NCBI GenBank assembly: GCA_964574595.1
Contig: CAZNOF010000007.1
Span: 11,703 to 75,702, forward strand
Reading direction: 5' to 3'
DNA length: 64,000 nucleotides
From: an uncultured Pseudomonadales bacterium
GTDB taxonomy: Bacteria; Patescibacteriota; Microgenomatia; UBA1400; PJMF01
Part shown: one piece after another, positions 19,920 to 48,681 of the stretch
How the letters are laid out: each line of letters starts with the position of its first letter
Position numbering within the stretch: position 1 is the first letter of the stretch
Notes under the pieces: model-generated
Seen by the model: the letters and a program-made list of their open reading frames with translations, nothing else
Databases searched by the model: none
What the model was told of the DNA's origin: nothing
Program-made: the position numbers and the translations under genes

Positions 19920-19956
19920 TTGTGCTGATTATACACTAAATCTTGAGCATTACTTG

Positions 19957-23316: not shown

Positions 23317-23319
23317 GAA

Positions 23320-24777
23320 TTACTTTGCTTGGACTAAGTCACCTTCTAAAACATTTCTATCAATGATGACTTGGTCAGTCTTTTCTAGACCACCCTTCAC
23401 TTCCACATATTGGCCAAACACTTGACCTAATGAGATTGGCTTAACCATTGCAGAGGCAGAGCCTTGCTGGTTTTTGCCAATTACATACACGTAAGACTGT
23501 TCTTGCGTCTGGTAAACACTATCCAGCGGAATTGAAGCTGAAATATGTGACGAGGCGGAAGTAATTGGGGCAGTGACAGCTACCCAACTATTATTTGCCA
23601 ACGCAGCAGAGTACTGAGCCGGAATGTGATAAATGACACTAAATAAGGTGCCCTCAGTGGGTTCCTGAGAAATATAGGTTGGTTTGATAGAGACTTTTTG
23701 GTCACCAATACTAAAGATACTTGGGTCCAATACCGAGACACTTTTGGCAACTTGCTGAGAGACCAGGGCCACTGCAGTTGCTTGGTTATCTTTTGCTTTA
23801 ATTGTAGCCAAGGTTGCACCTGGTTGAACTGATTGGCCCACTTTTACGTAGACCCGTTCCACAGTTCCCAACACAGGAGAAGCTGGATACATGAATGATT
23901 CAGTCACTTGGCTAATTTTTAAATTCAAACCAGCAATATCTCGGTTCAGTTCAAGCATCTTTTGCTGTAAATCGAGCTGCTGGACAGCCAAATCTCGTTG
24001 CGCATCAGATAAAGCAGCTGGTGTTTTATCATCTGCAGCCTGGTATTCCAAGGTTCTTTGACCTGATTGCAAATTTGCTAAACCAGATTGAACTCCGGAT
24101 TTAGCTTGTTGTAGTTGCAGAATAGCTGCATCATTACTGTGATCAGCATTATTGGCGCTCAACGTCACGAGTTGACTATTAATTGAGTTCAATAGATCTG
24201 TATTCAAATTAATTAAATCTTTGGTGGCATCTTGTGATTGTCGATTAATGGCTCTTAACTCACTAGCCTGAGTGCCGACCTTTTGAGCAATATCTCTTTG
24301 CTTGTTAATGACATTCGTTTGAGCATCAAAGTTATCTACTTGATACTGATAACTTTTCTGTGAAATGGCCCGACTAATTGAAGAGATGTTGGCACCTTGA
24401 TAATTACTTGATAAAGCAATAATCGTCGTACCTCTTTGAACTTGGTCACCTTCTTTTTTCTTAATTTGTTGGACAATACCACCACTTTGAGCTACTAAGG
24501 TAATAGTTCCTGACTTTTCAATCTTGGCCTGAATGCTAATACTTGGAGATCCAGAGAGTTGATAAGTCTCAACTGCTTTTGTTTGAGGGACTGTTGATTT
24601 AACACTTGCTGCTGGTGTTCTCATTTTATTACCCAGTGCAGCAATTCCAATTAAAAGAGCTAACAAAATGAAAAAAGTTGATAAAGGGTGTTTATCGATA
24701 AACCCAGTAACTGCATTTTTCACGTTAGAAAGGGCTTTTTTGGGTGACAAATTTGAAGGTTGTTTTGACATATGCAT
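23320..24777 (-). CDS. efflux RND periplasmic adaptor (membrane fusion protein, HlyD family)
   Basis: N-terminal membrane anchor, lipoyl/beta-barrel segments and a long Q-rich coiled coil. 4 nt upstream of the RND permease. Confidence 0.75.
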   Translation of the reverse strand: MHMSKQPSNLSPKKALSNVKNAVTGFIDKHPLSTFFILLALLIGIAALGNKMRTPAASVKSTVPQTKAVETYQLSGSPSISIQAKIEKSGTITLVAQSGGIVQQIKKKEGDQVQRGTTIIALSSNYQGANISSISRAISQKSYQYQVDNFDAQTNVINKQRDIAQKVGTQASELRAINRQSQDATKDLINLNTDLLNSINSQLVTLSANNADHSNDAAILQLQQAKSGVQSGLANLQSGQRTLEYQAADDKTPAALSDAQRDLAVQQLDLQQKMLELNRDIAGLNLKISQVTESFMYPASPVLGTVERVYVKVGQSVQPGATLATIKAKDNQATAVALVSQQVAKSVSVLDPSIFSIGDQKVSIKPTYISQEPTEGTLFSVIYHIPAQYSAALANNSWVAVTAPITSASSHISASIPLDSVYQTQEQSYVYVIGKNQQGSASAMVKPISLGQVFGQYVEVKGGLEKTDQVIIDRNVLEGDLVQAK

Positions 24778-32361: not shown

Positions 32362-33585
32362 TTAATCAACAAATGTTAAGGCAATGCCTTTTTTGTTGGC
32401 TCGGCCTGTTCTACCAATGCGGTGGATATAGGCTTCGTATGATTCTGGTAAGTCAAAGTTAATAACGTGAGTTACGTCATCAATATCTAAACCACGGGAT
32501 GCCACGTCAGTTGCTAAAAGCACGCGAACTCGATTACGTTTAAAGGCATCGATCGCTCTTTGGCGCTGGTTCTGTGATTTGTTGCCATGAATTGAAGCGA
32601 CCATCAGACCTCGTCGATCTAAGGTTTCAGCGAGTTTTTCAGTACCGCGTTTGGTTCTTAAAAAGACCAATACTTTACTGAACTCTTGCTGTTGCAGCAT
32701 TTCATGGAGGACATCAATTTTCAAGCGACCGGCAGTTTTCACAATATCCTGGTCTACGTTGGCTGATGTCTCACGAGATTTGACAGAAATTTTAGTTGGG
32801 TTATTCAAGAATTGTCGAGTTAATTGCTCTAATTCCATTGGCAAAGTTGCGGAGAAAAACAGTGTTTGTCTCGGTGATGGCAATTGAGAAACAATGTGTT
32901 TGACGTCTCGAATAAATCCCATGTCGACCATTTGGTCAACCTCATCTAAAACTAAGTTATTAAACAGACCTAAATTTAAAGCTCGTTGTTGCTCTAAATC
33001 TGCTAAGCGTCCTGGGGTACCAATCACGACCGCTGGATTCTGACGTAAACGTTGAATCTGTTGGTACATACTGGTTCCACCAATACATAAAGCTGAGAAT
33101 AATCTCATTCCTGTGGCAAACATCTTGAACTCTTGTTCGATTTGAACGGCAAGTTCGCGAGTTGGAGCAACGATTAAGACTCTTTGATTTTTATCTAAGG
33201 CGATTTTATTGATCAAAGGAATTAAAAAGGCGGCTGTTTTACCAGTACCAGTGTTGGCTAACCCGATGACATCGCGTCCTTCCATCAATGTAGGAATTGT
33301 TTCATCCTGAATTGAGGTTGGAGCGGTGTAACCATGGGAAGTAATATTCCTCAATAATTGCTCTGCTAAGCCAAAATCAGCAAACGTATGTTTTGCAACA
33401 TAGGCTGGAGGTTCAGCAATAGGCTGAGTTGGCGCTTTACTCACTAAGTGAGAAGGATCAAACGATTTTTGTCCTCTTCCTCCTGAGCGGCCACCACTAC
33501 CACCGCGACTTGAAAAGCCACGAGATGAGGATGATCGTCCACGAGAAGAAAAACTTCGGGATGGTCCACGAGAATTACTGTACAT
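32362..33585 (-). CDS. DEAD-box ATP-dependent RNA helicase with an N-terminal Arg/Gly/Ser-rich low-complexity extension
   Basis: Q-motif, Walker A (ANTGTGKT), DEVD (DEAD-box variant), SAT, and HRIGRTGR motifs. The first 40 residues or so are an RGG/RS-rich tract (SRGRSSSSRGFSSRGGSGGRSGGRG). Confidence 0.9.
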   Translation of the reverse strand: MYSNSRGPSRSFSSRGRSSSSRGFSSRGGSGGRSGGRGQKSFDPSHLVSKAPTQPIAEPPAYVAKHTFADFGLAEQLLRNITSHGYTAPTSIQDETIPTLMEGRDVIGLANTGTGKTAAFLIPLINKIALDKNQRVLIVAPTRELAVQIEQEFKMFATGMRLFSALCIGGTSMYQQIQRLRQNPAVVIGTPGRLADLEQQRALNLGLFNNLVLDEVDQMVDMGFIRDVKHIVSQLPSPRQTLFFSATLPMELEQLTRQFLNNPTKISVKSRETSANVDQDIVKTAGRLKIDVLHEMLQQQEFSKVLVFLRTKRGTEKLAETLDRRGLMVASIHGNKSQNQRQRAIDAFKRNRVRVLLATDVASRGLDIDDVTHVINFDLPESYEAYIHRIGRTGRANKKGIALTFVD

Positions 33586-35013: not shown

Positions 35014-35196
35014 TTAATTTTTGATCAATTTATAGGTAATTACAAGCCCAATTGCTCCACCCAAACTACTCGTTAACACACCAGCTACAGAAAAGAGCGT
35101 GCCACCCCAAAGTGATGGCAAGTATCCACCAATGATTGAGCCAATGGTCACACCAAGATACATCAGCGTTTTTGAAGACATAGTTGAGTCTAGCAT
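35014..35196 (-). CDS. small Gly-rich membrane protein (60 aa, two transmembrane segments)
   Basis: The ATG overlaps the TAA of the upstream PRTase gene (TAATG). Hydrophobic Gly-rich helices (LGVTIGSIIGGYLPSLWGG...LGGAIGLVITY). Confidence 0.4.
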   Translation of the reverse strand: MLDSTMSSKTLMYLGVTIGSIIGGYLPSLWGGTLFSVAGVLTSSLGGAIGLVITYKLIKN

Positions 35197-35813
35197 TATT
35201 TGAGTAGTTGAACTTGATCGTTTCGGTCAATTCGTTTGACCCTGATGCAGGAGAAGGTTTTTACGCCCATTTGTTCGACTCGCTCAATTCCTCCCTGCCA
35301 AACTTTATCAAAAAGCACAGCAAAACCGACAACGACGACGCCTCTTTTTTGGAGTGCCTCAATAATGACATGCGCTGTATCGCCTTTCGCGCAAACATCA
35401 TCTACCAGTAAAACGCGATCCCCTTTTCTGACAAACGAAAAGTTCAGGCCAGAAAAAACATCCACTCCACCTAAGCTCCCCGTAAATGACCTAACTTCCT
35501 GCCGCATGATCTCTTTCCAAGTTGCCGGGACAAATTGATCTTTTCTTGAACTATGTAAATGGACTGGATTTTTTAAGGCTAAAGAGACAGCAGTAGCAAA
35601 GTAAGTTCCAGAGTGCGGAATACCGTGCACAATCTGAATTTTCTCATCATCAAAATGGGCAGCCACAAGTCTTGCAGCTGCTTGGAGCACGCGAGAATCA
35701 ATCCGTAGATTAAAACTTGGTACAGACAAGTAGCCTCGGGCAGCATCAAATACTTTGGCATCTTGCAAAAATTGTTCTTTAAGGAAGGTCTGATCACCCA
35801 ATTGTTCATGCAT
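35196..35813 (-). CDS. type I phosphoribosyltransferase family protein (purine/pyrimidine salvage-type)
   Basis: PRPP-binding motif VLLVDDVCAKGDT. 205 aa. Adjacent to purine genes. Confidence 0.7.
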   Translation of the reverse strand: MHEQLGDQTFLKEQFLQDAKVFDAARGYLSVPSFNLRIDSRVLQAAARLVAAHFDDEKIQIVHGIPHSGTYFATAVSLALKNPVHLHSSRKDQFVPATWKEIMRQEVRSFTGSLGGVDVFSGLNFSFVRKGDRVLLVDDVCAKGDTAHVIIEALQKRGVVVVGFAVLFDKVWQGGIERVEQMGVKTFSCIRVKRIDRNDQVQLLK

Positions 35814-35814: not shown

Positions 35815-36909
35815 CTAGGTCGTTATTTTTTCTAGGGCATCGGCATCTATGGCATCTTGTATTTCCATGGCAACTCTCTTTCCTACAGAGATGGCATCGC
35901 CAAATAAGTACTTACTATACGGTGTAGCGGCAATTCCGGGAGAACCTGGCATTCTTGGAGAAACATCGATTACCACAATCTCCTTTTTCTTTGCCCCTGC
36001 AGTCACAATTGATTGCAAAGCAAACGGGCCAATAATTCCGGGCGAATAGATTTCTTGAGAGGCTTTCACAAAACGCTCGGCCATAGCAAACGCCGGTTCT
36101 AATAATGATTCTAAAACCGTGACCGCTATATGCCCGGCCTCCTCATAGGAAATCGCGACCTTCTCTTGAACAGCTATTTGGTGTGCTGCTGGGAGCCGAA
36201 GCATGCCATCTAAATTAGTCTGCCGCCGCGTATCTGTCCCGAGCAACTCAAGCCGCTGATGGATGGGCGAGTAAAAAAAGTTAAAGTTCACTTGAGTTCC
36301 CAACACAAACTCTTCAATCACTGCCGTATCTAAAATCTGCTGCGTCATTTTTCCAGATTTGATCATCTCCCGACCCATTTTTTGAAACTCGTCAAAATCT
36401 TTGGCCAAGAAAAAAGCACGTTCAAATGAGCGTTCTTTTTCATTTGCTTTGACTAAACAAAGTCGGTCAATTTGCTTGGGATCAGAAAAATGTTTTGGAT
36501 ACGGGATACTGGCTTTATCAAGCAGATCATATTGATTTGGCTTAGCGCTCCGCTCTTCAATTTTCAGCAAATACTTATTGCCAAAAAAAGGAATTGGGAA
36601 CTGGTTCTCGATAGCCTGATAATTAAAATGGAGATACGCTTCAAATGAGCGGTTTGGAATCCAAATTGGATTGGATTTTTGTAACTGACTTATAACTGCA
36701 GGATGCAGCAACTCATCAAATCTATCTAAAAGCATGGAATCATCCACGCAGCCTACATTGCCGACTGTTTTGTAATACTTTGTGTACGTCTGTTCCCGAC
36801 CCTTCTCGGTCACTACCAACGTCTTAAAGCCAAGATCCTTGGCTCCTCGGCAAACGTCTAATGCCGAATGACTTCCCAAAGTAGCAATCGTAATTGGTGA
36901 GTCAGACAT
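35815..36909 (-). CDS. purP: PurP-like 5-formaminoimidazole-4-carboxamide ribonucleotide (FAICAR) synthetase, archaeal-type ATP-grasp, paralog 1
   Basis: The N-terminus ITIATLGSHSALDVCRGAKDLGF matches the remembered M. jannaschii PurP N-terminus (ITIATLGSHTSLHILKGAKLEGF). Conserved FFYSP and PG(I/M)IGPF(A/C)LQS segments. Size 364 aa. Confidence 0.7.
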   Translation of the reverse strand: MSDSPITIATLGSHSALDVCRGAKDLGFKTLVVTEKGREQTYTKYYKTVGNVGCVDDSMLLDRFDELLHPAVISQLQKSNPIWIPNRSFEAYLHFNYQAIENQFPIPFFGNKYLLKIEERSAKPNQYDLLDKASIPYPKHFSDPKQIDRLCLVKANEKERSFERAFFLAKDFDEFQKMGREMIKSGKMTQQILDTAVIEEFVLGTQVNFNFFYSPIHQRLELLGTDTRRQTNLDGMLRLPAAHQIAVQEKVAISYEEAGHIAVTVLESLLEPAFAMAERFVKASQEIYSPGIIGPFALQSIVTAGAKKKEIVVIDVSPRMPGSPGIAATPYSKYLFGDAISVGKRVAMEIQDAIDADALEKITT

Positions 36910-37920
36910 TTAGTTGAGTACCTCCGCCAAACGATCTTGAGCAATTGCTAGTTTAATCTCCCGGGCAATTCTTCTGCCGGTACTCATCGGCTCGTCATAG
37001 ATAAGTGAAGCATATGGAGAGCTATCAATGAACAAATTTGTTCCAGCCACAATTCTGCAAGATACTTCGACAGCGTAAAATTTCTGATCCTGAGTAATGA
37101 TCGTTTCTAAACAGAACGGTCCAAAGAGACCTTTTTTATCAATCAGCCTTTTACCACTTTCTATCAACCGATCAGCCATTGCATAGGCTTCAGGCATCAA
37201 CGACTCGCGGATAACTAAGGGACTATTACCGACCACTACAAAGGAAGGCACGATATCAATTTGCTCTTGGTGTTTAAGTGGTAATCTTCCTAATGAATCA
37301 ACATTTGACTCGTAGCGGCGGTCAATACTTAACAACTCATTCTGGCCAGTAAGTGGTGAGTAGAAAAAGTGCAAATACATTGGAACACCAATGATATATT
37401 CTTGAACAATAAAGTCCTTTGATGTAAACTTTTTTAATTTTTCCTGGAAGTCGGTTTGATTGTGTGCGATGAAGTAACCCACTCCTCCAGCCGCTCCATA
37501 TGACTTCACAATAACTGGTCGATCAATTACGTCTTTTTCTGTAAAAATTCGTGGAACATTAATGTGGGCATCTTTCAACCATTCATTCTGTTTTTCCCGA
37601 TCAGCTTCTAAGTCAAGCACTTTTTTGTTGCCAAAATATGGCGTGGTAATTTTTTTGTTTCCTTCAATACCGAGATATGCCACAAAGGAACCATGAGGCA
37701 CGAGAATCGAGTTGTATTTTTTTAACTCTGTTTCTGCCTGCTCAAATTGAGCAAATGAATCAATCACAATTTGGTGATCGATAAAAGGAAATCGTTTGTA
37801 AAAACCAGCACGACTCGGGGTTGTCACCACCACAGTTTCAAAACCTTCATCTCTGGCTCCCTTCAGAATTTGCAATGATGAGTGACTGCCAAGAGTGGCG
37901 ATAGAGTAGGGTTTTTTCAT
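36910..37920 (-). CDS. purP: PurP-like FAICAR synthetase, paralog 2. Start chosen at the ATG at 37920; the track's TTG at 37953 would overlap purF.
   Basis: YSIATLGSHSSLQILKGARDEGF, YFGNKK, HFFYSPL, LFGPFCLETI and GRRIAREIKLA closely parallel archaeal PurP. Tandem with paralog 1. Confidence 0.7.
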   Translation of the reverse strand: MKKPYSIATLGSHSSLQILKGARDEGFETVVVTTPSRAGFYKRFPFIDHQIVIDSFAQFEQAETELKKYNSILVPHGSFVAYLGIEGNKKITTPYFGNKKVLDLEADREKQNEWLKDAHINVPRIFTEKDVIDRPVIVKSYGAAGGVGYFIAHNQTDFQEKLKKFTSKDFIVQEYIIGVPMYLHFFYSPLTGQNELLSIDRRYESNVDSLGRLPLKHQEQIDIVPSFVVVGNSPLVIRESLMPEAYAMADRLIESGKRLIDKKGLFGPFCLETIITQDQKFYAVEVSCRIVAGTNLFIDSSPYASLIYDEPMSTGRRIAREIKLAIAQDRLAEVLN

Positions 37921-37936: not shown

Positions 37937-39474
37937 TTATGACTGTACCACAACTGAATTTTTTTGCTCTAAGTGAATATTGCCAACTCGATCAATTGGG
38001 TATCTTTTACCCAACATACAGCCCATACAAAATCCTTTTGCTTGAGCATTACCTGTTAATGCCTCCAGTAAACCTTCAGCAGATAAGTAGGCTAACGAGT
38101 CAGCGCCAATTTCTGCCCTGACGCCTTCTAAATCGCCCTGATGCTGATAAACAATTAACTCCTGCTGTTTGCGCGTATTCACGCCTAAATGACAGGTTTT
38201 ATCAATTGGCGGACAAAGTATTCGAATATGAACGGCTTTGACTTGATACTTTTCTTTCAGTAGTCGGACCAGGCCAGTTGTTACATTGCCACGCACCAAC
38301 GAGTCATCTACCAATACCACTTTTTTACCTCGTAGCATCTCCACATCAAAATCGAAATGTGTCAGCACTTTTTGTAGGATAGAGTCAATTTGGGCGGACA
38401 TAAAAGTGCGCTTTTCCTCAGTAGGCGAATTGATATCAGTAATGGCTTGAGAGTAATCCAAGCCTAGTTCTTGAGCAAAGGCTTCACCACCTGGTATACC
38501 AGTTCCCGGAACCCCAACCACCAAATCCACATCTGCTTTAGTGAGTGGTGCTTCTCTAGCCAAGATACTGCCGCAACGGGCCCGAACTTCCGTTACTTTG
38601 AATGATTCATTCCCCTCTTCAGGAGTGATTCGCGGGTAATGAGCTCGGCTATTTCCGTCTTGAATGTAGACTGTTTCAAAAACACAAGTGGCCGTGCCCA
38701 TAGCTCGCTGTTGAAAAATCAGTTTAGCTCCATCCTCATCGATTCTTAAGATACTTCCTGGCATAACTTCCAAAAAATTCTCAACACCCATCTCCACTAA
38801 CGCACCTGTCTCAGATGCAGCCAACCAAATTCGCTGTTTCGTTTTTAAATCTGTCTTGTATCCATACCAAAGTGGCCGAACACCTAAAGGATCTCTCGCT
38901 AGGTAAAGGAAATTCTGGGTTCCAATAATTAAACTCCAAGCACCTTTTTTTTGAGGAATGGCGTGAATCAATCGTTGTTCCATCGTTGGGAAAAGAGAGT
39001 TCTTTAGCTCATCAACAAATTCTGCCGTATCACTTTTATTAGCCACGGAGTCAGTCATGATTTGAATAAACTGGCCATTGTGGGCAAGCACGAAGGGGGC
39101 GGGATCAATAACATTTCGAGCGACGAATGGTTGCACATTATCTGAAGAGTAACTTCCTGAAGTACCATATCGTGTTTGAAAGACCCAAGTTTTGGCTTTT
39201 TTACTCTTTAGCTTTTTGATTACTTCAATCGCAAAAACCTCATTTATCATCCCTTCACCTTTGTGTGTCAAAACTTTGCCTTGCGAAGTGATTGCACAGC
39301 AACCTGCTCCGTCATAGCCACGAGTCTGTAAATTTTGTAAACCAACCAGTCCGGTTTGGGAAAGTGCCGAATCCCTAGGAGCAAAAATCCCGACCACACC
39401 GCACTTATCTTGCAACGCCCCACGTTCTTCGGCCTGCAATCTGTTAAATGTACGTTTACGGTGAGTGGACTCCA
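37937..39474 (-). CDS. purF: amidophosphoribosyltransferase (class II glutamine amidotransferase plus PRTase domain)
   Basis: Catalytic Cys following a propeptide (..DKCGVVGIF). PRTase motif (VVLVDDSLVRGNVT). TAGGAAA ribosome-binding site upstream of the MESTHRK start at 39474. The longer ORF to 39568 is rejected. Confidence 0.9.
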
Positions 39475-39493
39475 TAGTGTTTCCTAGATCAAA

Positions 39494-39523: not shown

Positions 39524-39589
39524 CTGAGTCCTGAAGTACACTGTACGGAATGTCACAGGTCTTTTCAAGCAGGAAACAAATGCTTGAGC

Positions 39590-40390
39590 TTAACGAAACT
39601 GATTAATTTCATCTCGCAATTTCTTGGCTTCCATCGCTGGGTTTTCGGCAAAAATAATACCTCGGGCTGAGTTAATGATCATGCCCTGCTTGGAAGTGTT
39701 TAAACCGGCTGTACAAGCGTCTTCGACGCTTCCACCTTGCGCGCCAACTCCTGGTACGAGAAAGGTCATCTCGCCGGCCAATTTTCTGATGGCAGCCATT
39801 TCTTTAGGATACGTCGCCCCAACTACCAACATACAGTTTTGATTTTTGTTCCAATTCTTCACAATTGCTTCCGTGACTCTTTGCCAAAGCGGTTGTCCTT
39901 CAACGAGCAAATCTTGGAACTCGCCAGAGCCCGGGTTTGAAGTCCGACATAAGAAAATACAGACTTTATCAGTGCGATCCAAAAAAGGCTGCATGGCTTC
40001 TTGTCCCAGATACGAATGCAACGTCACCGAGTCAAAGCCATACCAATCAAATGCTGAGCGAACATAGGCGGTGTTGGTCGAACCAATATCTCCACGCTTG
40101 GCATCCAAAATCGTAAAAATATCCGGGTGATTCTCTTGTAAGTACTCCATCGTCATCTTCAACTCTTTGATACCTTGCTCACCTCTCATCTCGTAGTAGG
40201 CTGAGTTGGGTTTGTAGGATGAAACAAACTCGTGGGTCTGTTCAATGATCCACTTGTTGAACTCAAACTGAGGAAATTTTTCAGCTTGGAATTTTGCCGG
40301 CAACTTGCTGAGTTCTGAGTCGAGCCCGACACTTAGTAATGAGTTCACTTTTTCTTCTCTAGCATTGAGTTTTAGTTCGGCTGGTGACAT
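39590..40390 (-). CDS. pyrF: orotidine 5'-phosphate decarboxylase (type 2)
   Basis: OMPdecase long-form features (ILDAKRGDIGST, FLCRTSNPGS). 266 aa. Lies in the pyr operon. Confidence 0.85.
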   Translation of the reverse strand: MSPAELKLNAREEKVNSLLSVGLDSELSKLPAKFQAEKFPQFEFNKWIIEQTHEFVSSYKPNSAYYEMRGEQGIKELKMTMEYLQENHPDIFTILDAKRGDIGSTNTAYVRSAFDWYGFDSVTLHSYLGQEAMQPFLDRTDKVCIFLCRTSNPGSGEFQDLLVEGQPLWQRVTEAIVKNWNKNQNCMLVVGATYPKEMAAIRKLAGEMTFLVPGVGAQGGSVEDACTAGLNTSKQGMIINSARGIIFAENPAMEAKKLRDEINQFR

Positions 40391-40391: not shown

Positions 40392-41021
40392 TTATTTTCC
40401 CCAACTGTATGGATCTTTCATCCAGTCTTGTATTGTCGCAATTTGCGACTGAGTGATTTTTTGTGCCTTCACTGCCTCTTCCAAGATCACTTTGAAAGTA
40501 GTTGCCATATGTAACTTTACATTGGCTTTTTCAAAAGCTGTAAAGACTTCTTGAAACTCGTAATTCGTAATACATAAACAATCGGTGACAATGGCACCTT
40601 CAGCTCTAAGAGATGCCACTCCAGCTAAACTAGAGCCACCGGTTGTGACGTGATCTTCAATTAGAAGGACCTTTTTACCTTTGACACTTCCTCCCTCAAC
40701 CATTTTCTTGGTGCCATGATCCTTGGCTTGTTTTCTGACGAACACAGATGGCTTCTTCAGGATAAATCCTAATGCTGCACTATGTGGAATCCCAGCAGTT
40801 TCAATTCCAGCAACCACATCAAAATCAATTTTATCTTTGCGAATTAAATAAGCTAATCCCTCGAGTACAGTATCCCAATTTTCCGGGTAAAAGGGCAACT
40901 TTCTGTTATCCACATAGACGGGCGAAATAATTCCTGATTTAAACGTAATTGGCTTTTCAAGAGAAAAACCAACGGCATTGATTTCAAGTAATGCTTGGGC
41001 CACTGATTGTTTGATATCCAT
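40392..41021 (-). CDS. pyrE: orotate phosphoribosyltransferase
   Basis: PRTase motif (KVLLIEDHVTTGGSS). OPRTase N-terminal region (FKSGIISPVYVDNR). Confidence 0.85.
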   Translation of the reverse strand: MDIKQSVAQALLEINAVGFSLEKPITFKSGIISPVYVDNRKLPFYPENWDTVLEGLAYLIRKDKIDFDVVAGIETAGIPHSAALGFILKKPSVFVRKQAKDHGTKKMVEGGSVKGKKVLLIEDHVTTGGSSLAGVASLRAEGAIVTDCLCITNYEFQEVFTAFEKANVKLHMATTFKVILEEAVKAQKITQSQIATIQDWMKDPYSWGK

Positions 41022-41040: not shown

Positions 41041-42108
41041 TTATAAATTTGCTTGATATATTTCTTCACCTAATTCAGGATTCCACATGGCTCCAGTGGC
41101 GCTCATGACTGCGTCAGCACCCACTTGGCGGTACTCCGCGAAGTCAGCAGCACTTAAGACACCACCAACACCGATAATTTCGTACTTCATATTTAGTTCT
41201 GTTCGTAAACGAGCCAATCGAGTTACCATGTCTAATCCTGCCCATTTGATTCCAGCTCCGCAGACCCCGCTTCTTGCTCGGCCAGCGCCAGGTAATGCCT
41301 GATTGCCATCTTTATCAACAATCGTAGCAGCAATGGTATTGATTGCTGAAAATGCCTGGACAACATTTCCCAGTTCACCCACAAATTGCTTGAGTCTCTG
41401 ATCATCCATAAAGGCAATTTTTAAGATTAATGGAATATCACCAATCTCGTCTTTGACTTTTTGAGCAATCACTTTTGTCCTTTGAATGTCAAAACACAGC
41501 AAATCTGCTTTGCCTTCATTTGGACAACTCAGATTCGCTTCCATGACTTTGACACCAGTCTCCTTCAGGAGCTTGGCGGTCAAAACAAAGTCGGCCACGT
41601 ACTTGTCAAAGTCGCCACTCCCATCACCAGTACCTTGAAAACTGCCAATTAATAACTGACCTTCGCCTGCTTCTTGGAGAGCTTTTCTGATATCTGCTTG
41701 CCAGATAGCTGGCGTTTTTGATGGCACCCCAAACGAGTTCGTAATGGAAAGTGGCTCGGTGTACTCCGTATTGGCGAAGACCTCATGACTGGCTTTTTCT
41801 AATGTTAAATCGCCATCAAAATGAGCTGCCAGAACATTTGGCCAGGGATGACAGGCATGTTCGTGAGAACGAACTGTTTTGTAGACACAGATATCAAATC
41901 CTTTTTTAAAGGCTGCCGTCGTAAAATTACTATTGAGTAATGGTCCAGCGGGAATGCCAAATGGCGTATAGACTGTTTGACCTAAGAACTTCGCCGATGG
42001 TTTCTTGACTCGTTTTACTTCTTTTGGCGCAACAAACGCACCAAATGGACCCTGATCATAATTCTCTTCGTATGACTTGGATGGATCGTAAAATGGGGTT
42101 TTTAACAT
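41041..42108 (-). CDS. pyrD: dihydroorotate dehydrogenase
   Basis: TIM-barrel DHODH motifs (EANLSCPN, IIGVGGV). Position in the pyr operon. Confidence 0.8.
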   Translation of the reverse strand: MLKTPFYDPSKSYEENYDQGPFGAFVAPKEVKRVKKPSAKFLGQTVYTPFGIPAGPLLNSNFTTAAFKKGFDICVYKTVRSHEHACHPWPNVLAAHFDGDLTLEKASHEVFANTEYTEPLSITNSFGVPSKTPAIWQADIRKALQEAGEGQLLIGSFQGTGDGSGDFDKYVADFVLTAKLLKETGVKVMEANLSCPNEGKADLLCFDIQRTKVIAQKVKDEIGDIPLILKIAFMDDQRLKQFVGELGNVVQAFSAINTIAATIVDKDGNQALPGAGRARSGVCGAGIKWAGLDMVTRLARLRTELNMKYEIIGVGGVLSAADFAEYRQVGADAVMSATGAMWNPELGEEIYQANL

Positions 42109-42122: not shown

Positions 42123-43160
42123 TTAAATAACCAGGTTTCCATTTTCAACTAAAACTGTTCCTCGCAGAACAACTGTCTCAACCACCCCGTACAATTCCCA
42201 GCCCTCAAAGGGTGACCAGCCGCATTTTGACTCATAGCCGTACTCACCAACTCTCCACATTTTATCTGGATCAATTTCAATGTAGGTTTTTTCTTGGACA
42301 GGAGTATTAAAAATACGCTGAGCATTATCATGCAAAACGGCTTGTATTTTTTCTAGAGGAAATTTGCCATCGTGAACAGCTTTAAACATCAGTCCTACTG
42401 CAGTTTCCAATCCCGGAACTCCGTACGGAGCGGGCTCTTTTTTCTTCTCTTCAATCGTATGAGGAGCATGGTCCGTTTCCACTAGATCGATCGTGCCATT
42501 TTTCAATCCCTCCCACAGAGCATCTTGATCAGCTTGAGTTCCTAAAGGCGGTTTCATCATTGCTAACCCACCTAGCTTCTGACGATCTTCTCCTGTCATA
42601 AATAAGTGATGTGGGCAGACTCCAGCCGTAATTTTTTGACCACCCTGCTTCGCTTCTGCCACCATTGCCACTTCCGAAGCTTGGGTAATATGACAGACGT
42701 GTAAACGTTGTCCATGTTCCGCTGCCTTAGAAATAGCCATTCTTAGCTGCTCACCTTCTGCGTGAACGAGAATTGGCTTGCCAACTGGCCAAGTCGCAAA
42801 AACTTTTTCCACTAAAACTGGGTTCTCCAGTAACATTTCCCCAGTCGTGTGATTACAGTACAGCTTGAGTCCATAGACTCGTGGGTTTGCTGCTGCATCA
42901 ACAAAGCTATCAGTATTGAGACCATTTGTTCCGTAATGAAATGAAATATCGCAGGCAGCCTTCTGAGCCAACGCGATCTTCTCTTCCAATCTCTCCAAGC
43001 TTATCGTGGGGGTAGGGTTATTCGGCATATCAATAATAAAAGTAAATCCACCTTTGACTGCCGCTCTGCTGCCCGTCAAGAAATCCTCTTTATGTGTCGC
43101 CCCCGGTTCTCGTAAGTGGACGTGTGGATCAATAAAGCCTGGCAATTTGAGAAGAGACAT
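42123..43160 (-). CDS. pyrC: dihydroorotase (amidohydrolase family, short form)
   Basis: Metal-binding DPHVHLREPG motif and later conserved His/Asp residues (LVETDHAPH). Operon context. Confidence 0.8.
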   Translation of the reverse strand: MSLLKLPGFIDPHVHLREPGATHKEDFLTGSRAAVKGGFTFIIDMPNNPTPTISLERLEEKIALAQKAACDISFHYGTNGLNTDSFVDAAANPRVYGLKLYCNHTTGEMLLENPVLVEKVFATWPVGKPILVHAEGEQLRMAISKAAEHGQRLHVCHITQASEVAMVAEAKQGGQKITAGVCPHHLFMTGEDRQKLGGLAMMKPPLGTQADQDALWEGLKNGTIDLVETDHAPHTIEEKKKEPAPYGVPGLETAVGLMFKAVHDGKFPLEKIQAVLHDNAQRIFNTPVQEKTYIEIDPDKMWRVGEYGYESKCGWSPFEGWELYGVVETVVLRGTVLVENGNLVI

Positions 43161-43165: not shown

Positions 43166-44113
43166 CTATATTCCTTCCTTCAATAGAACGAGTGATAAGA
43201 GAGCCATTCTGACGTACATACCGTTTCGCATTTGTTCAGTAATGTAGACTGCTCGTTTGTCCAAATCGACATCCATGGTGATCTCACCAACGCGTGGTAA
43301 TGGATGCATAATAATGGCTGTTTTCTTCAATTTTTTAATGAGTGTCGGAGTAATAATATAATGATGTTTCAATTTCTCATATAAATCAAGATCGGTAAAT
43401 CGTTCTTTTTGTACTCTAGTCACGTACAAGACATCGGTGTCTTTGAGAACATCATCTAGCGTCTCACTTTCATGAATCGTGACGCCTCTAGAACGAAGTT
43501 TTTCTTGTAAGCCACTTGGTAAACGCAAAATGTCTGGCGAGACGTAGTTAATTTTGATCGATTTATATTGAGACAGGAGTTTTGATAACGAGTGGATGGT
43601 TCTACCATTCAAGAGATCTCCCACCATGGTTATCGTTAAACCTTCTGGCGAACTGAAATGATCACTGATCGTAAAAAAGTCTAACAGAGCTTGAGATGGA
43701 TGCTCCCCCACACCATCTCCAGCATTAATAACTGGCTTTTCTGAAAAGTCGGCGGCAATTCGAGCTGATCCTAAATCTGGATGACGGATGACAACTACAT
43801 CAGAATAACAGGCAAAAGTTCTGACAGTATCAGGCAAGGTTTCGCCTTTACTGACTGATGAGTAACTTACACCTTGCAAGGGAATAAAGCTGCCCCCTAA
43901 GCGCTGCATGGCAGCCACAAAGGAACCAAACGTTCTACTTGATGGCTCGTAAAAAAGGGCCGTCATCAGTTTCCCTTTTAAAATGTCTGTCGAGCCTTTT
44001 GACTCCACCAACTTTCTCATCTTCTTGCCATACTCTCTGACAAGCTGAAGATCTTCATGCGTGAACTGATCCGCAGTTAAAATGTCCTGTTGGAAAAAAT
44101 TATTTTTGAGCAT
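43166..44113 (-). CDS. pyrB: aspartate carbamoyltransferase catalytic subunit
   Basis: Carbamoyl-phosphate binding SSRT motif (FYEPSSRTFGSF) and an HPLP motif (IMHPLPR). Confidence 0.9.
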   Translation of the reverse strand: MLKNNFFQQDILTADQFTHEDLQLVREYGKKMRKLVESKGSTDILKGKLMTALFYEPSSRTFGSFVAAMQRLGGSFIPLQGVSYSSVSKGETLPDTVRTFACYSDVVVIRHPDLGSARIAADFSEKPVINAGDGVGEHPSQALLDFFTISDHFSSPEGLTITMVGDLLNGRTIHSLSKLLSQYKSIKINYVSPDILRLPSGLQEKLRSRGVTIHESETLDDVLKDTDVLYVTRVQKERFTDLDLYEKLKHHYIITPTLIKKLKKTAIIMHPLPRVGEITMDVDLDKRAVYITEQMRNGMYVRMALLSLVLLKEGI

Positions 44114-47100
44114 ACGCTCCTTTATTAATTGATAATTGTTCTACATACTCTCGCCAGGATTTAATTGCCAAATCAGGCAAACTATAACGGGTTACGGCCT
44201 CGACAAAATAGGCGGCATTGTCTGTTGAAGCAAAAATTGGAATCCCGAAATCCACTGCCATTCTTCTCATCATGTAGCCATCAGTATTACCATTTTTATT
44301 CTTCTTGGGAGTTGAATCTTTGTGGGATCGAGGCACCACGACTGCAAAGTCAATTTCGCGCTTGGTCATTAAGTCTACTGCATCTGGATGCTTCCCCTCC
44401 TGAATTTTACTTATCTCCGTGGCGGTGACTCTGTTTTCTTTTAAGAAAAGATATGTGCCTGAGGTAGCGTAAATTCGATAGCCTTCGTTCATTAATTTGC
44501 GGCAACTCTCTACAAAATTTAATTTATTTCTGGCACCACCTAAACTAACTAACACAGCCTTTTTTTGAGGGAGTTTAATATTTGTGGCTAATAACCCTTT
44601 TAAGTAGGCCTCATGAATATCTTTTCCAAATGCTGCTACTTCTCCTGTAGAACCCATCTCGACACGTAAAATAGGATCACTGCCACGTAGCTTCAGAAAT
44701 GAAAATTGTGGAACTTTAATCGCTTGGTACGGTATCTCTGTAATAATGTTTGGAGAAACCTTTTTCCCAAGAGCAATTTCCGTGGCTGCTTCAATAAAAT
44801 TTTGATTAAGTACTTTACTAACAAACGGCATGCTTCGAGAGGCTCGTAAATTACATTCGATAACAAACGCGGTGTCATCTTCAATTAAAAATTGAATGTT
44901 AAACGGACCTTGGACGTGCAACGCATCAACAATATCTTCGACAGATTTTTGAATTCGCTGCTTTATGCTGTCTGAAAGAGTGATTGATGGTAGAGATAAA
45001 GTAGAATCGCCAGAATGAACGCCCCCTGCTTCTAGATGTTCTGAAAGGGCGGATCTGACAACTTTGCCATTTTGAGCCACGCCATCGTAATCACATTCAC
45101 GGGCGTTATTCAGGAAGTAACTCATCACCAGGGGATGTTCTTTGAGATCTAACTCATTTCTGTCCATGTAACGTTCCAAGTCTTGCTCTGATTTGAGAAC
45201 GCTCATTGCTTTCCCTGACAGCACAAAGGATGGTCTAACGAGAATTGGATAGCCAATTTCTTTGGCCAGCGCTAAGGCTTTTTTGGTATTGTTTGCTTCA
45301 CACCAAGCAGGCTGAAATATTTTCAATCGATCAAGCAAAGCGCTGAACAGTTGTCTGTCCTCAGCACGCTGAATATCTTCAGCAGAAGTACCTAGAATTG
45401 GTACGTGATGGTCATACAATTTTTGAGCTAAATTATTGGGAATTTGGCCGCCGACGGACAAGATGAAAGGAGACTGTTCGATATCGTAAATATCCAAAAC
45501 TTGTTCCAAGCAGAGTGCCTCAAAATACAGATAATCCGAGTTGTCATAATCTGTGGAAACGGTTTCTGGATTACAGTTCACCATGATCGATTTGTAGCCA
45601 TTTTTCTTCAACGTTTGAATTGTATTCACTGCACACCAGTCGAATTCCACAGATGTACCAATAGAGTATGGCCCACCACCAATCACGATCACTTTTTTTT
45701 CTTTCGGATCAGCAACGTGATCAGATTCTGTGGCGGCATAAGTAAAGTATAGGTAATTGGTTTGGGCTGGGAACTCGCCTGCCATCGTGTCAATTCTTTT
45801 CACCACAGGCAAGATGCCTAATTTTTTACGCTTCACTCTCATTTGCTCTTCTGACTTTTCCATCAGATCAGCAATTTGTTTATCAGAGAAACCATTTCGC
45901 TTCGCAACTCTGAACAGTTCCGGAGACAAGTTTTTCGTTTTCTCAATTTCCTTATAAATCGAGATGATGTGCTGCAATTTTTCTAAGAACCAAGTATCTA
46001 TCTTGGTAATCTTTGCCACCGTTTTCACAGAAATACCAGCTCTCAGTGCTGAACAAATTGTCATTAAACGCATCGTGTTTGGAACTGATAACTTTTTTAA
46101 TAGAACGGCTTTGGTTTCTCGATTAAAATTTTTATCGATGACGCCTTGGTACCCATCATTTAACATTCGCGTGCCTTTTTGAATGGCTTCTTCGAAGGTT
46201 CGGCCGATAGCCATAACCTCGCCAACACTTTTCATCTCACTACCGATTTCTGTGACAGCGTGTGAGTATTTATCTAAGTCCCAGCGCGGAATCTTGACAA
46301 CCACATAATCTAAGGCTGGCTCAAAGAAAGCAGAGGTTTTTTGGGTAATAGAGTTTTTGAGTTCAGGTAATGTTTTCCCAAGTGCTAACTTGGCAGCCAC
46401 ATAGGCTAAAGGATAGCCAGTAGCTTTTGAGGCCAAGGCAGACGATCGGGATAAACGAGCATTTACTTCAATAATGCGGTAGTCACTAGTTTCCGGGTTC
46501 AAGGCGTACTGAATGTTGCACTCACCCACAATTTTAAGTTCACGGATTGTGTCCATGGCAACTTGGCGAAGTAAAAAATACTCATGGTTGTTCAACGTCT
46601 GAGACGGTGCGATCACAATTGATTCACCAGTGTGAATACCAACTGGGTCAAAGTTTTCCATATTACAGACGGTAATACAGTTATCAGCTTGGTCTCGAAC
46701 CACTTCGTACTCAATCTCTTTCCAACCCGCTAATGATTCTTCGACAATTACTTGGGGTGCTGTGGCGAATGCTTTCTTCAGCAACGCGCTTAGGATAGCC
46801 TCTGAGGAAGCCACACCTGACCCTGCACCTCCCAAGGCAAAACCTGTCCTCAACATGACCGGATAGTGAAGTTCTCTGGCATATGCCAACCCATCCTCAA
46901 GCGAAGTGACAATCCTCCCCCTTGCTGTTTTCAACCCAATCTTCCCGAGTCTTTCAGCAAATCGTTCTCTGTCCTCCGTATCGACGATTGCCTGTACTGG
47001 CGTACCTAATACTTGTACGTGATACTTTGCTAAAATTCCGGAATGATACAAATCCATGCCACAGTTCAATGCAGTCTGCCCCCCAAATGACAACAGAATG

Positions 47101-47360
47101 CCTTGGGGTTTTTCTTTCTGAATAACTTTCTCTACAAAGTACGGTGAGACAGGCAAGAAATAAATCTCATCTGCCAAACCTTGTGAAGTTTGAATCGTGG
47201 CCACATTTGGATTGATTAGGATAATGCGTTTTCCTTCTTCTTTCAGCGCTTTGATGGCTTGCGTCCCTGAGTAGTCAAACTCGCCTGCCTCTCCAATTTT
47301 CAGTGCTCCTGATCCAAGGAGTAAAACGGTGTGAATGGTGTTTGGCATGTGATCTTTCAT
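44100..47360 (-). CDS. carB: carbamoyl-phosphate synthase large subunit
   Basis: 1086 aa with duplicated ATP-grasp halves, an oligomerisation domain and a C-terminal MGS-like domain. Overlaps carA by 4 nt and pyrB by 14 nt. Confidence 0.95.
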   Translation of the reverse strand: MKDHMPNTIHTVLLLGSGALKIGEAGEFDYSGTQAIKALKEEGKRIILINPNVATIQTSQGLADEIYFLPVSPYFVEKVIQKEKPQGILLSFGGQTALNCGMDLYHSGILAKYHVQVLGTPVQAIVDTEDRERFAERLGKIGLKTARGRIVTSLEDGLAYARELHYPVMLRTGFALGGAGSGVASSEAILSALLKKAFATAPQVIVEESLAGWKEIEYEVVRDQADNCITVCNMENFDPVGIHTGESIVIAPSQTLNNHEYFLLRQVAMDTIRELKIVGECNIQYALNPETSDYRIIEVNARLSRSSALASKATGYPLAYVAAKLALGKTLPELKNSITQKTSAFFEPALDYVVVKIPRWDLDKYSHAVTEIGSEMKSVGEVMAIGRTFEEAIQKGTRMLNDGYQGVIDKNFNRETKAVLLKKLSVPNTMRLMTICSALRAGISVKTVAKITKIDTWFLEKLQHIISIYKEIEKTKNLSPELFRVAKRNGFSDKQIADLMEKSEEQMRVKRKKLGILPVVKRIDTMAGEFPAQTNYLYFTYAATESDHVADPKEKKVIVIGGGPYSIGTSVEFDWCAVNTIQTLKKNGYKSIMVNCNPETVSTDYDNSDYLYFEALCLEQVLDIYDIEQSPFILSVGGQIPNNLAQKLYDHHVPILGTSAEDIQRAEDRQLFSALLDRLKIFQPAWCEANNTKKALALAKEIGYPILVRPSFVLSGKAMSVLKSEQDLERYMDRNELDLKEHPLVMSYFLNNARECDYDGVAQNGKVVRSALSEHLEAGGVHSGDSTLSLPSITLSDSIKQRIQKSVEDIVDALHVQGPFNIQFLIEDDTAFVIECNLRASRSMPFVSKVLNQNFIEAATEIALGKKVSPNIITEIPYQAIKVPQFSFLKLRGSDPILRVEMGSTGEVAAFGKDIHEAYLKGLLATNIKLPQKKAVLVSLGGARNKLNFVESCRKLMNEGYRIYATSGTYLFLKENRVTATEISKIQEGKHPDAVDLMTKREIDFAVVVPRSHKDSTPKKNKNGNTDGYMMRRMAVDFGIPIFASTDNAAYFVEAVTRYSLPDLAIKSWREYVEQLSINKGAYAQK

Positions 47361-48427
47361 GTTAATACCTCAAAAATCCAATCAGTATCAAATGGGCCTG
47401 GCTCCCCTTCCGGATGGAACTGAACACTCCAGGCTTTTTGTTGGGTACTTTGTACCCCTTCATTCGTATTGTCATTTAAGTTTACAAACCACTCTTTTAC
47501 TGTTGAGGGCAAGGATTCTCTCTTGACGGCATACCCGTGATTTTGTGAGGTTAAATAGGCTTTTTTCGTCGAAAGGTCTTGGCATGGCTGATTAAGCCCT
47601 CGGTGCCCGTATGGCAATTTATATGTATCTCCACCAACAGCCAAGGCGAATAATTGATGACCCAAGCAAATGCCTAAGAAAGGAATTCCTTTAGCCAATA
47701 CTTCCTTAATGTGTCTCACGGTAATAAGGCAATCTTTTGGATCACCAGGACCATTGGAACACAGGACGCAATCAAATTTTTCCTTCAATTCAAATGGGCT
47801 CATGTCCCAGGGAATTCGGATAATGGTGAAACCTTTATTAAGCAGCGCTCTCAAAATACCGTGCTTAACGCCGCAATCTATCACCACTACTGTTTTGCCA
47901 TTTGCCAGCTTCTTTTCTGGAGTGTAATGCAACACTTTTGGATAACTGACTCGCTGAACTTGGTTAACGGATTGCGCTTTTTTCCAGACGGGTGATTTTT
48001 TCTTAAAGGAGATTACTCCTCTCATACTTCCAAATTGGCGTAGTTTCTGGGTCAAAGCCCGAGTGTCTATTCCTGTAATTCCTGGAACTTTATTTTTCCG
48101 TAACCACTGGGAAAATGATTGAGTAGACGCGTGGTGAGACTCTTCCACAGTCAGATCACCCACTATCACGGCTTGTGTCCAAACTTTTTCAGATTCAAAA
48201 TTTTCTGATAGGTGTGGGGCTCGAGCAATAGATTTAGGAACTCCATAATTTCCGATTAAAGGAAATGTGAAAACTAAAATCTGACCGGCAAAGGATGGAT
48301 CAGAGAGACTTTGACAGTACCCAGTCATCCCAGTTGAAAAGACGACTTCACCGGCAACTTCAAGTTCTGCTCCAAAATGATCACCTTCAAATACGCTACC
48401 GTCTTCTAAATGTAAGTATGCTTTCAT
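47357..48427 (-). CDS. carA: carbamoyl-phosphate synthase small (glutaminase) subunit
   Basis: CPSase small-chain N-domain plus class I glutamine amidotransferase with the catalytic Cys (GICLGHQ). 356 aa. Confidence 0.9.
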   Translation of the reverse strand: MKAYLHLEDGSVFEGDHFGAELEVAGEVVFSTGMTGYCQSLSDPSFAGQILVFTFPLIGNYGVPKSIARAPHLSENFESEKVWTQAVIVGDLTVEESHHASTQSFSQWLRKNKVPGITGIDTRALTQKLRQFGSMRGVISFKKKSPVWKKAQSVNQVQRVSYPKVLHYTPEKKLANGKTVVVIDCGVKHGILRALLNKGFTIIRIPWDMSPFELKEKFDCVLCSNGPGDPKDCLITVRHIKEVLAKGIPFLGICLGHQLFALAVGGDTYKLPYGHRGLNQPCQDLSTKKAYLTSQNHGYAVKRESLPSTVKEWFVNLNDNTNEGVQSTQQKAWSVQFHPEGEPGPFDTDWIFEVLT

Positions 48428-48465
48428 AAGGTACTCGGTGTTCCGGCAACAAAGCCTCTAGATGC

Positions 48466-48490
48466 AAAAAAAATCCCGACTGAATCGGGA
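48466..48490 (-). promoter_or_regulatory. terminator-like attenuator in the carA-pyr leader (TCCCGA-ttcag-TCGGGA followed by U8), about 45 nt upstream of the carA ATG
   Basis: On the minus-strand transcript the 6-bp hairpin is followed by TTTTTTTT. No minus-strand gene lies upstream; the neighbouring gene is divergent. So this is a 5'-leader element, not the 3' end of another gene. Confidence 0.4.
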
Positions 48491-48681
48491 TGAAACACAA
48501 ATTTAAGACAATCTTTGTCATTATGACAAAGAATTACGAATGAATTAGGCAAAAAAAAACTAGTGTCTGGCACTAGAGAGTACATTCTAGTTATGTATTT
48601 CCATAAATGCAAGTTCGGATTTTCCCGTCGAGTAGCAGCGGATTTTCAGCTTCTTTTCAGATAAAAGCGTATAATAACGAT

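Follow-up and report, generated by a model that had tools for sequence, protein, structure and literature searches.

The 64-kb window analysed here, i.e. the whole stretch of DNA taken from contig CAZNOF010000007.1, carries on its minus strand two adjacent genes of the PurP family, which are called A and B below. Paralog A (36910-37920; 336 amino acids (aa) from its ATG) is an N-type PurP, resembling cluster Ib or PurP II, and paralog B (35815-36909; 364 aa) is an H-type PurP, resembling cluster II or PurP III. An alternative TTG start of A at 37953 would give a protein of 347 aa and would overlap the upstream purF; the ATG at 37920 was preferred because the homologs are 336 aa long. The junction of the two genes reads TAAATG, the ATG of B following directly on the stop codon of A without any spacer, and a single nucleotide (nt) separates the stop codon of B from the ATG of a phosphoribosyltransferase (PRTase) gene. 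Both genes stand in the tail of a tight 12-gene unit on the minus strand, in which neighbouring genes overlap or are separated by gaps of 22 nt or less. Judged from their sequences, A and B are bacterial orthologs of the ancient archaeal pair formed by PurP II (cluster Ib) and PurP III (cluster II).

A sequence-only reading of this locus had described both open reading frames (ORFs) as archaeal-type synthetases of 5-formaminoimidazole-4-carboxamide ribonucleotide (FAICAR), i.e. enzymes that formylate 5-aminoimidazole-4-carboxamide ribonucleotide (AICAR) with formate. The motifs on which it relied were all found (IATLGSHS(S/A)L, FFYSP, and GPFCLETI or GPFALQSI), and the family assignment was strongly supported by profile search. 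In both proteins DUF1246 is N-terminal and DUF1297 C-terminal, with 141 and 218 bits for A and 129 and 208 bits for B (Pfam gathering scores 25 and 23.8) and E-values from 1e-38 to 1e-65. Membership of a different ATP-grasp family, which would have spoken against that reading, found no backing: A gave only 19.9 bits to the PurK model TIGR01161, whose cut-off is 318, and B gave no such match. Among proteins of known structure, A matched Pyrococcus furiosus PF1517 over its full length (2R84; 327 bits; about 50% identity) and Methanocaldococcus jannaschii MJ0136 (2R7K; 299 bits), and B matched MJ0136 with 217 bits; the identity between A and B is 32%. The name FAICAR synthetase for both proteins went too far. 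The NCBIfam equivalogs for PurP (PRK13278 equivalogs) have cut-offs of 556-603 bits, and the best scores were 368 against 580 for A and 264 against 556 for B; moreover, FAICAR synthetase activity (EC 6.3.4.23) has been demonstrated only for PurP I, MJ0136 (Cruz 2019; Brown 2011). By these profiles, A and B are members of the PurP family, though not near relatives of the characterised enzyme.

Four groups of PurP have been distinguished in archaea: PurP I (MJ0136), PurP II or cluster Ib (PF1517), PurP III or cluster II (PF0421) and the uncharacterised PurP IV (TK0431) (Cruz 2019; Brown 2011). PF1517 binds ATP and AICAR and is inactive alone in vitro (Cruz 2019), P. furiosus PurP III is inactive in vitro (Cruz 2019; Brown 2011), and archaeal PurP II and III always co-occur (Cruz 2019). 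In cluster II, the residue that contacts the carboxamide of AICAR, Asn258, is always His, His27 and Arg314 are conserved, and the (K/R)GG(K/R)G loop is replaced by a charged, glycine-poor loop which is two residues longer (Brown 2011). Searching with B against 1.84 billion representative proteins returned 562 matches, which makes this a small family, and all of its full-length representatives sorted into two classes with no exception. The N-class, which includes MJ0136, PF1517 and A, has Asn258, Glu230 and a 17-residue GAxGGxG loop; the H-class, which includes B, has His258, a 19-21-residue loop of the type ...ERAFF and usually Gln230. The deepest split in a neighbour-joining tree (no support values) was that between the N-class and the H-class, and A was placed beside PF1517.

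The individual residues of the two proteins agree with this division. A has Asn232 (equivalent to MJ0136 Asn258), Glu204 (equivalent to MJ0136 Glu230), Glu285 and Arg289, and its loop, GAAGGVGYF, lies in a 17-residue window as in MJ0136 and PF1517; both K/R positions of the (K/R)GG(K/R)G consensus are occupied in it by Ala and Val. It shares Gln199/Tyr208/Glu297/Ala317 with PF1517 and not with MJ0136. B has His260 in place of Asn258, together with Gln230, Gln299, Asp315 and the GSPG motif. Its loop (KANEKERSFERAFF) has 19 residues, compared with 17 in the N-class over this alignment window, and contains no glycine, and Glu163 and Arg164 within it are invariant in the class; B also keeps Lys154, the Glu199/Glu200 hinge and Arg319. 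His260 was invariant in all 80 H-type sequences from the loci described below and in all full-length H-class representatives, and His14 and Arg319 of B, which correspond to the formyl contacts His27 and Arg314, were likewise invariant in the H-class. Every one of the cluster II diagnostics of Brown 2011 is thus present in B and none in A, though the placing of B in cluster II follows from these signatures and from the named archaeal loci in its class (Methanosarcinales, Thermoplasmatota, Micrarchaeota and others), not from a direct comparison with PF0421 or AF0256. We regard A and B as the two members of the ancient II/III pair and not as products of a local duplication, because the split between them is the deepest in the family and A is nearer to PF1517 than to B. 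One subgroup of the H-class (P0130, P0131, P0148, P0186 and P0223) combines Glu230 and the N-class GGTN motif with His258 and the long loop, and it may be an evolutionary intermediate.

The two classes were compared further in sequences from paired loci, 70 of the N-type and 80 of the H-type. From N-type to H-type, the invariant changes in MJ0136 numbering are G93R, G159E, G162R, Y166F, Q199E, Y208N, H210N, E230Q, N258H, E297Q, E310D and the replacement of AGTN317-320 by GSPG. In addition, H-type proteins carry an inserted Arg (B120) and an inserted Glu (B163) beside the invariant Arg164. The pocket of B is more basic, with E230Q, E297Q and E310D and the added Arg87, Arg120, Arg160 and Arg164. 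Retained in both classes are His27, Glu122, Lys156, Asp226, Arg228, Asn232, Glu265, Ser266, Arg314 and Arg342, and the formyl contacts His27/Arg314 and the phosphate contacts Ser94/Ser266 are conserved in A as well as in B. We take Lys156, the hinge Glu-Glu, the acidic residue at 310 and Arg314 to be the nucleotide, Mg and acyl-phosphate machinery of an ATP-grasp enzyme, their versions in B being Lys154, Glu199/200, Asp315 and Arg319. As to whether one copy has lost its catalytic residues, the glycine-rich ATP loop is gone from B, but the Lys, the hinge Glu-Glu, the acidic residue and the Arg are kept in modified form, and B is far from degenerate. A reciprocal swap was also noticed. PurP I and the H-type share Glu199/Gln297/Gly317, whereas the paired N-type proteins (A and PF1517) have Gln199/Glu297/Ala317; these positions are residues 173/272/292 of A and 199/299/322 of B, and the swap may reflect compensatory or interface-related change.

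Both genes appear to be maintained. Of the residues conserved in its class, A retains 74 of 77 and B 99 of 101. Measured against the closest relative of this locus (L001, described below), the nonsynonymous distance (dN) amounts to 0.044 in A and 0.126 in B, while synonymous sites are saturated. The possibility that B is a dead paralog was ruled out by this residue conservation and low dN, and the earlier view that the genes are native was upheld, both being operon members under strong purifying selection. The AlphaFold2 model of B (predicted local distance difference test (pLDDT) score 84, predicted template modelling (pTM) score 0.82) superimposed on 2R7K/L/M with template modelling (TM) scores of 0.79-0.81, against about 0.5 for other ATP-grasp enzymes. 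According to the model, B has the PurP-type three-domain ATP-grasp fold, and A has the PurP fold to judge from its sequence; the PDB holds no H-type structure. The only low-confidence segments of the model, residues 229-231, 253-263 and 323-328 (approximately 35925-36225), coincide with the H-type motifs (RQT, the His260 region and GSPG). These may be mobile active-site loops that become ordered when a ligand or partner binds.

An exact look-up of B found no record of it in the public assemblies. The closest relative of B, with 83% identity, lies at locus L001 on a 584-kb contig with the same local gene order. An apparent fusion of purF and PurP at that locus (845-873 aa) was an artefact, since the DNA alignment showed a 10-N scaffold gap at about 8960-8990 that had been read through as codons. 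By far the most relatives of B belong to Patescibacteria, chiefly to Woese-, Roizman-, Shapiro-, Davies- and Gottesmanbacteria, and the window is accordingly assigned to a Microgenomates-type bacterium of the Candidate Phyla Radiation. One genome per species was scanned with a narrow H-type alignment; at least 600 of these genomes, from bacteria as well as archaea, contained an H-type gene, and the best 80 loci, which are biased towards relatives of B, were analysed. The bacteria among these best 80 are Microgenomates, followed by Dependentiae, Chloroflexota, Saccharibacteria, Gracilibacteria and Peribacteria; the archaea are Micrarchaeota, Woesearchaeota, Altiarchaeota, Methanosarcinales and anaerobic methanotrophic archaea (ANME), Thermoplasmatota and others. 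PurP had been called uncommon in bacteria, and this holds for cultivated bacteria, but the pair is common in Microgenomates and occurs in the five further groups just listed.

Pairing here means an N-type gene not more than 3 kb away from the H-type gene and on its strand. Including the window, there were 47 bacterial loci, and in all 45 that could be assessed both genes were on one strand. They were directly adjacent in 35 (N then H in 33, H then N in two) and separated in ten, by purA and/or purH only; none of these 45 loci had the H-type gene alone. Of 35 archaeal loci, all assessable, 27 had both genes on one strand: 24 directly adjacent (21 with H then N, three with N then H) and three separated. 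The remaining eight had the H-type gene only. Adjacent N-type and H-type genes often overlap by 4 nt. Four of the loci with an H-type gene and no N-type neighbour (L071, L077, L080 and L083) come from metagenome-assembled genomes (MAGs) of Thermoplasmatales and are flanked by thrS and a convergent gene for 5-formyltetrahydrofolate cyclo-ligase, and a link of this locus to one-carbon donor metabolism is possible.

The distance matrices of the N-type and H-type proteins from 69 loci were correlated with r = 0.78, while the highest value in 1000 label permutations was 0.12. Neighbour-joining trees of both proteins (no support values) contained the same odd placements, with Woesearchaeota among Saccharibacteria and two Micrarchaeota among Microgenomates, and those DPANN archaea carry the bacterial gene order (N then H). 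Because the N-type and H-type trees are congruent, these results show that the pair has been inherited, and exchanged horizontally between the domains, as a unit. A number of taxonomic labels in the data set are unreliable, for example 'uncultured Gammaproteobacteria ... binchicken' (L005, L006, L008, L015 and others), 'Methylomirabilota' (L024) and 'Desulfobacteria' (L047). The contigs so labelled cluster with Microgenomates or Methanosarcinales in both PurP trees, in accordance with their gene order, and they are probably mislabelled or mis-binned.

In related bacterial genomes the pair usually lies within a full pur operon. For example, a Gottesmanbacteria contig of 1.22 Mb has the order purF-purN-purD-purL-purQ-[N-H]-purB-purE-purC-purM, and Microgenomates repeatedly show such a purF-to-purM operon with the N-type and H-type genes, in places extended by purK, purA, guaA, prs, ham1 or a haloacid dehalogenase (HAD) hydrolase gene. 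Recurring neighbour ORFs of about 425 aa are PurA. The idea that those of about 505-520 aa are all PurH was rejected, as clustering and Pfam searches showed them to be mostly GuaA, with one cluster of nine PurH. Canonical bifunctional PurH (AICARFT_IMPCHas plus MGS) is accordingly found in nine loci (L013, L015, L018, L019, L024, L028, L030, L067 and L082). In L013 (6169-11074) and L024 (7422-11092), which are of the Levyibacteria type, purH lies between the N-type and H-type genes and purA is there too. In Curtissbacteria loci, purA alone separates the pair, and in sister loci the PurP genes abut and purH is gone. The separated loci of Levyibacteria or Curtissbacteria type were L013, L014, L016, L017, L021, L023, L024 and L026. 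It looks like purH is undergoing a non-orthologous displacement in situ within Microgenomates.

Among 23 bacterial loci with at least five of the nine other core pur genes, purH was present within 10 kb in six and absent in 17, and three loci (L004, L006 and L009) had all nine other core pur genes and no purH within 10 kb. A search for PurH homologs gave 120 listed matches, in which the PurH clade typical of the Candidate Phyla Radiation (CPR) was exhausted. Of the large pair-bearing contigs, only that of 420,971 bp reappeared among them; the contigs of 1,222,826, 1,028,424, 823,511, 771,642, 584,023 and 547,396 bp were not among these 120 matches. This is suggestive, though no proof, of an absence of purH from such genomes. 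purK was found together with the pair in nine loci and purN in at least eight, and the idea that B replaces PurK or PurN/PurT was ruled out, as both genes coexist with the pair.

In the window itself, the neighbours named by the sequence-only reading were all confirmed: carA, carB, pyrB, pyrC, pyrD, pyrE, pyrF, purF, A, B and a type I PRTase. The pyrimidine genes, all on the minus strand and identified by Pfam and NCBIfam, are carA (47357-48427), carB (44100-47360), pyrB (43166-44113), pyrC (42123-43160), pyrD (41041-42108), pyrE (40392-41021) and pyrF (39590-40390). They are followed on the same strand by purF (37937-39475), which lies 16 nt upstream of A and encodes a glutamine-phosphoribosyl pyrophosphate (PRPP) amidotransferase of the Bacillus type with a [4Fe-4S] cluster. 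It has a propeptide of about 24 residues ahead of the Cys nucleophile (CGVVGIF), and Cys1 and the four cluster cysteines align with Bacillus subtilis PurF (1AO0; 187 bits). Its score with TIGR01134 was 220 bits, under the cut-off of 350. The ATG at 39475 is the presumed start, and the reading frame is open up to a TTG at 39568. Orthologs of this purF stand first in the pur operons of related loci. The last gene of the operon (35196-35813, minus strand) encodes the divergent type I PRTase, distantly similar to xanthine and adenine phosphoribosyltransferases (XPRT and APRT). It scored 51 bits with Pfam Pribosyltran and 71 and 68 bits with the XPRT models, far under their cut-offs, and its best PDB match was B. 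subtilis XPRT with 44 bits. Among the loci compared, this PRTase gene adjoins the pair in L001 (11097-11711 there) and in the window, and at no other locus. The enzyme could make AICAR from 5-aminoimidazole-4-carboxamide (AICA), or salvage a purine base. The earlier observation that the window has no purH was also correct: neither a PurH (AICARFT_IMPCHas plus MGS) nor a PurO (IMP_cyclohyd) domain was found in its non-overlapping ORFs of at least 150 aa, and the same ORFs contained no purine genes beyond purF, the pair and the PRTase gene.

A consensus scan found a terminator-like hairpin with a T-run at 35094-35120 (minus strand), about 76 nt past the stop codon of the PRTase gene, which is the probable end of the operon; msrA converges from the plus strand on this 3' side. 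At the other end, the 5' leader of carA (48428-48606, minus strand) combines a promoter-like site with three hairpins that resemble terminators, where 0.2 would be expected by chance; runs of 7-9 T follow two of these hairpins. No Rfam family matched the leader at threshold. It is possibly an attenuator for the whole 12-gene pyr/pur operon, A and B included. Elsewhere in the window, a DEAD-box helicase (32362-33585, minus strand) has at its N-terminus an Arg-, Gly- and Ser-rich tail of about 40 residues (SRGRSSSSRGFSSRGGSGGRSGGRG), which is unusual for a bacterial helicase and has the same length in L001. In the region 14673-24777, this CPR bacterium with its small genome encodes an AcrB-type transporter of the resistance-nodulation-division (RND) family (1119 aa) with an HlyD-like partner, and a glycogen gene set consisting of a phosphorylase, a glycoside hydrolase family 57 (GH57) enzyme and glycogen synthase.

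With regard to function, the reading that we prefer, and to which we give a probability of about 0.5, is that A and B act together in turning AICAR into FAICAR (and perhaps further to inosine monophosphate, IMP), with A as the catalytic subunit and B as its obligate partner in a hetero-oligomer. Formate and ATP would be used in place of 10-formyl-tetrahydrofolate. As the canonical ATP-grasp subunit, A would generate formyl phosphate and formylate AICAR at its 5-amino group, and B would be a co-evolved obligate partner whose active site is remodelled but strictly conserved. A trimer of A and a trimer of B would be stacked into a hexamer, and A alone would be inactive, like PF1517. The archaeal pair has been proposed to form a heterohexamer (Cruz 2019). 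The suggestion of a heteromeric enzyme in the sequence-only reading agrees with this published speculation on the archaeal pair, whereas its other suggestion, sub-functionalisation after a local duplication, does not stand. We favour the hetero-oligomer because PF1517 binds its substrates yet is inactive alone, because the trimer-trimer contact in PF1517 is weak, and because the one-to-one pairing, often with translational coupling, is stricter than ordinary pathway linkage. A broader proposal is that B supplies the missing IMP cyclohydrolase, or else is an obligate subunit for the N-type protein, and that A plus B form a complete folate-independent replacement of PurH; this we put forward as tentative. 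The hetero-oligomer and a cyclohydrolase role of B are not mutually exclusive.

Several observations weigh against the joint action of A and B that we prefer. Activity has been seen for no paired PurP of either class, and the AICAR/FAICAR step and thus the substrate of the pair are what we infer; neither A nor B reaches the NCBIfam equivalog cut-offs for PurP. Since purH occurs in the operon of the pair at nine related loci, the pair is not always a replacement of PurH, and the picture of a simple PurH stand-in drawn by the earlier reading fails there. A lack of folate is not an obvious driver of PurP use, nor a folate-free lifestyle an obvious reason for it, because purN is present in many purH-less pair operons. 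Congruent trees and adjacency speak for co-inheritance and co-expression, not for physical contact. The ATP-grasp Lys, hinge Glu-Glu, acidic residue and Arg kept by B, along with the invariant Arg, His, Gln and Asn residues that it adds, exceed what a scaffold would need, and an independent enzyme would fit equally well. Finally, the window has no other pur genes, so it does not demonstrate the full pathway in this organism.

If B is an independent enzyme, the pair could, in the main rival to our reading, be two sequential enzymes, A being a stand-alone formate-dependent FAICAR synthetase and B the missing IMP cyclohydrolase, which would bind FAICAR in a PurP-type nucleotide pocket and close the ring with His260 as general base. 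In B the phosphate and formyl contacts of AICAR are kept (His14, Ser88, Ser268 and Arg319), the carboxamide contact has become an invariant His and the glycine-rich ATP loop is lost. Such an activity would also fill a gap: PurP I is accompanied by PurO in 24 of 25 archaea, while 37 of 61 genomes with PurP II/III have no known cyclohydrolase (Cruz 2019, Table 1), Crenarchaeota are described in the literature as lacking any known cyclohydrolase, and some CPR operons cover all the other steps while lacking both purH and any unassigned ORF. In addition, nearly any enzyme that binds nucleotide monophosphates could serve as a cyclohydrolase (Brown 2011). However, a stand-alone synthetase should be active, yet the N-type PF1517 alone is not, and a cofactor-free cyclohydrolase would have no need of the retained ATP-grasp Lys, hinge Glu-Glu and acidic/Arg pair. 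Of the 61 archaeal genomes with PurP II/III, 24 moreover have PurH, PurO or PurJ (Cruz 2019), and the nine bacterial loci have purH together with the pair. We find this division of labour doubtful. It is unlikely, in our opinion, that B is instead an ATP-dependent ligase for another purine-pathway substrate or formyl donor (PurK-like, PurT-like or using another one-carbon donor), tied to A by the pathway only. Its own full set of invariant polar active-site residues and its more basic pocket would suit such an enzyme, purK is missing from many pair operons, and it has been suggested that PurP III has a distinct activity and that PurP II takes its formyl group from another source (Zhang 2008, as cited in Cruz 2019). 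Nevertheless, the coexistence of the pair with purK and purN means that B is no general substitute for either enzyme, the residues contacting the phosphate and formyl groups of AICAR are conserved in B, and the strict one-to-one pairing exceeds ordinary pathway linkage.

The remaining explanations concern the origin of the pair and its role in this particular organism. Adjacency on one strand, common family and the loss of the glycine-rich loop in B were compatible with the tandem duplication assumed by the sequence-only reading, in which an archaeal purP was acquired horizontally and then duplicated locally, after which one copy sub-functionalised or decayed. This is hardly tenable, given that A has about 50% identity to PF1517 and 32% to B and that the deepest split of the family, which archaea share, separates A from B. 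Both members also occur together across bacteria and archaea with congruent trees, and B is not decaying, having kept 99 of 101 residues with a dN far under the saturated synonymous distance (dS). As regards its role, the pair may work in salvage here, the PRTase making AICAR from AICA and PRPP (or AICAR coming from elsewhere) and A and B converting it to IMP, as has been proposed for Korarchaeum. In the window and in L001 the pair lies beside the divergent purine-type PRTase gene, no other late pur genes were found within the 64 kb, and K. cryptofilum is described as having only two purP-like genes (Brown 2011). Still, a bona fide purF, which encodes the committed step of de novo synthesis, stands immediately upstream and implies that the rest of the pathway is elsewhere in the genome, of which only 64 kb is covered, and the PRTase matches the XPRT/APRT models far under their cut-offs; salvage is quite improbable as the function of the pair.

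The pair is a known feature of archaea, and its presence in bacteria is visible in existing annotations, such as 'DUF1297 domain-containing protein [Candidatus Woesebacteria]'. Nevertheless, PurP has been stated to be restricted to Archaea (Cruz 2019), a statement that the bacterial pair contradicts, and we found no mention of PurP in CPR or other bacteria in the literature searched. What PurP II/III do, and which enzyme is the IMP cyclohydrolase in many archaea, are questions that have been standing since 2008-2011. Here, the pair proved common in Patescibacteria and present in Dependentiae and Chloroflexota, at the position where sister lineages have purH, and this operon context gives independent comparative support for a place of both paralogs at the last steps of purine synthesis. 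In metabolic reconstructions of CPR bacteria, a missing purH may lead to purine synthesis being counted as incomplete. The class-specific residue sets are targets for mutagenesis, and genes from mesophilic bacteria should be far easier to handle in E. coli than hyperthermophile proteins that were inactive in vitro. If A plus B do replace PurH, this would account for the missing cyclohydrolase in Crenarchaeota, many Thermococcales and PurH-less Patescibacteria, and compact mesophilic purH-less operons would make the old question directly testable in an E. coli purH mutant.

Compared with the known systems, A is most like PurP II (PF1517; PDB 2R84-2R87), with which it shares Asn258, the 17-residue GAxGGxG loop, Glu230, Gln199/Glu297/Ala317 and an H-type partner. 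It differs in that its host is bacterial (Patescibacteria) and presumably mesophilic and that the K/R positions of its loop are Ala and Val; the order of the pair is mostly N then H in bacteria, whereas it is H then N in most archaea. B resembles PurP III (PF0421) in having His258, a longer, charged and glycine-poor loop, His27/Arg314 and a one-to-one association with an N-type protein, and it differs from it in its bacterial host. Both A and B have the fold, domains and formyl and phosphate contacts of PurP I (MJ0136; PDB 2R7K-N). However, PurP I occurs as a single copy, is active on its own and is accompanied by PurO, and its Glu199/Gln297/Gly317 are like those of the H-type and unlike those of A. 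PurH takes the same position in the pur operon as the pair and concerns the two pathway steps that are at issue for the pair, but it has an unrelated fold and chemistry, depends on folate and uses no ATP. In the nine loci where PurH and the pair occur together, their relation is partly one of redundancy, comparable to that of PurN and PurT in E. coli.

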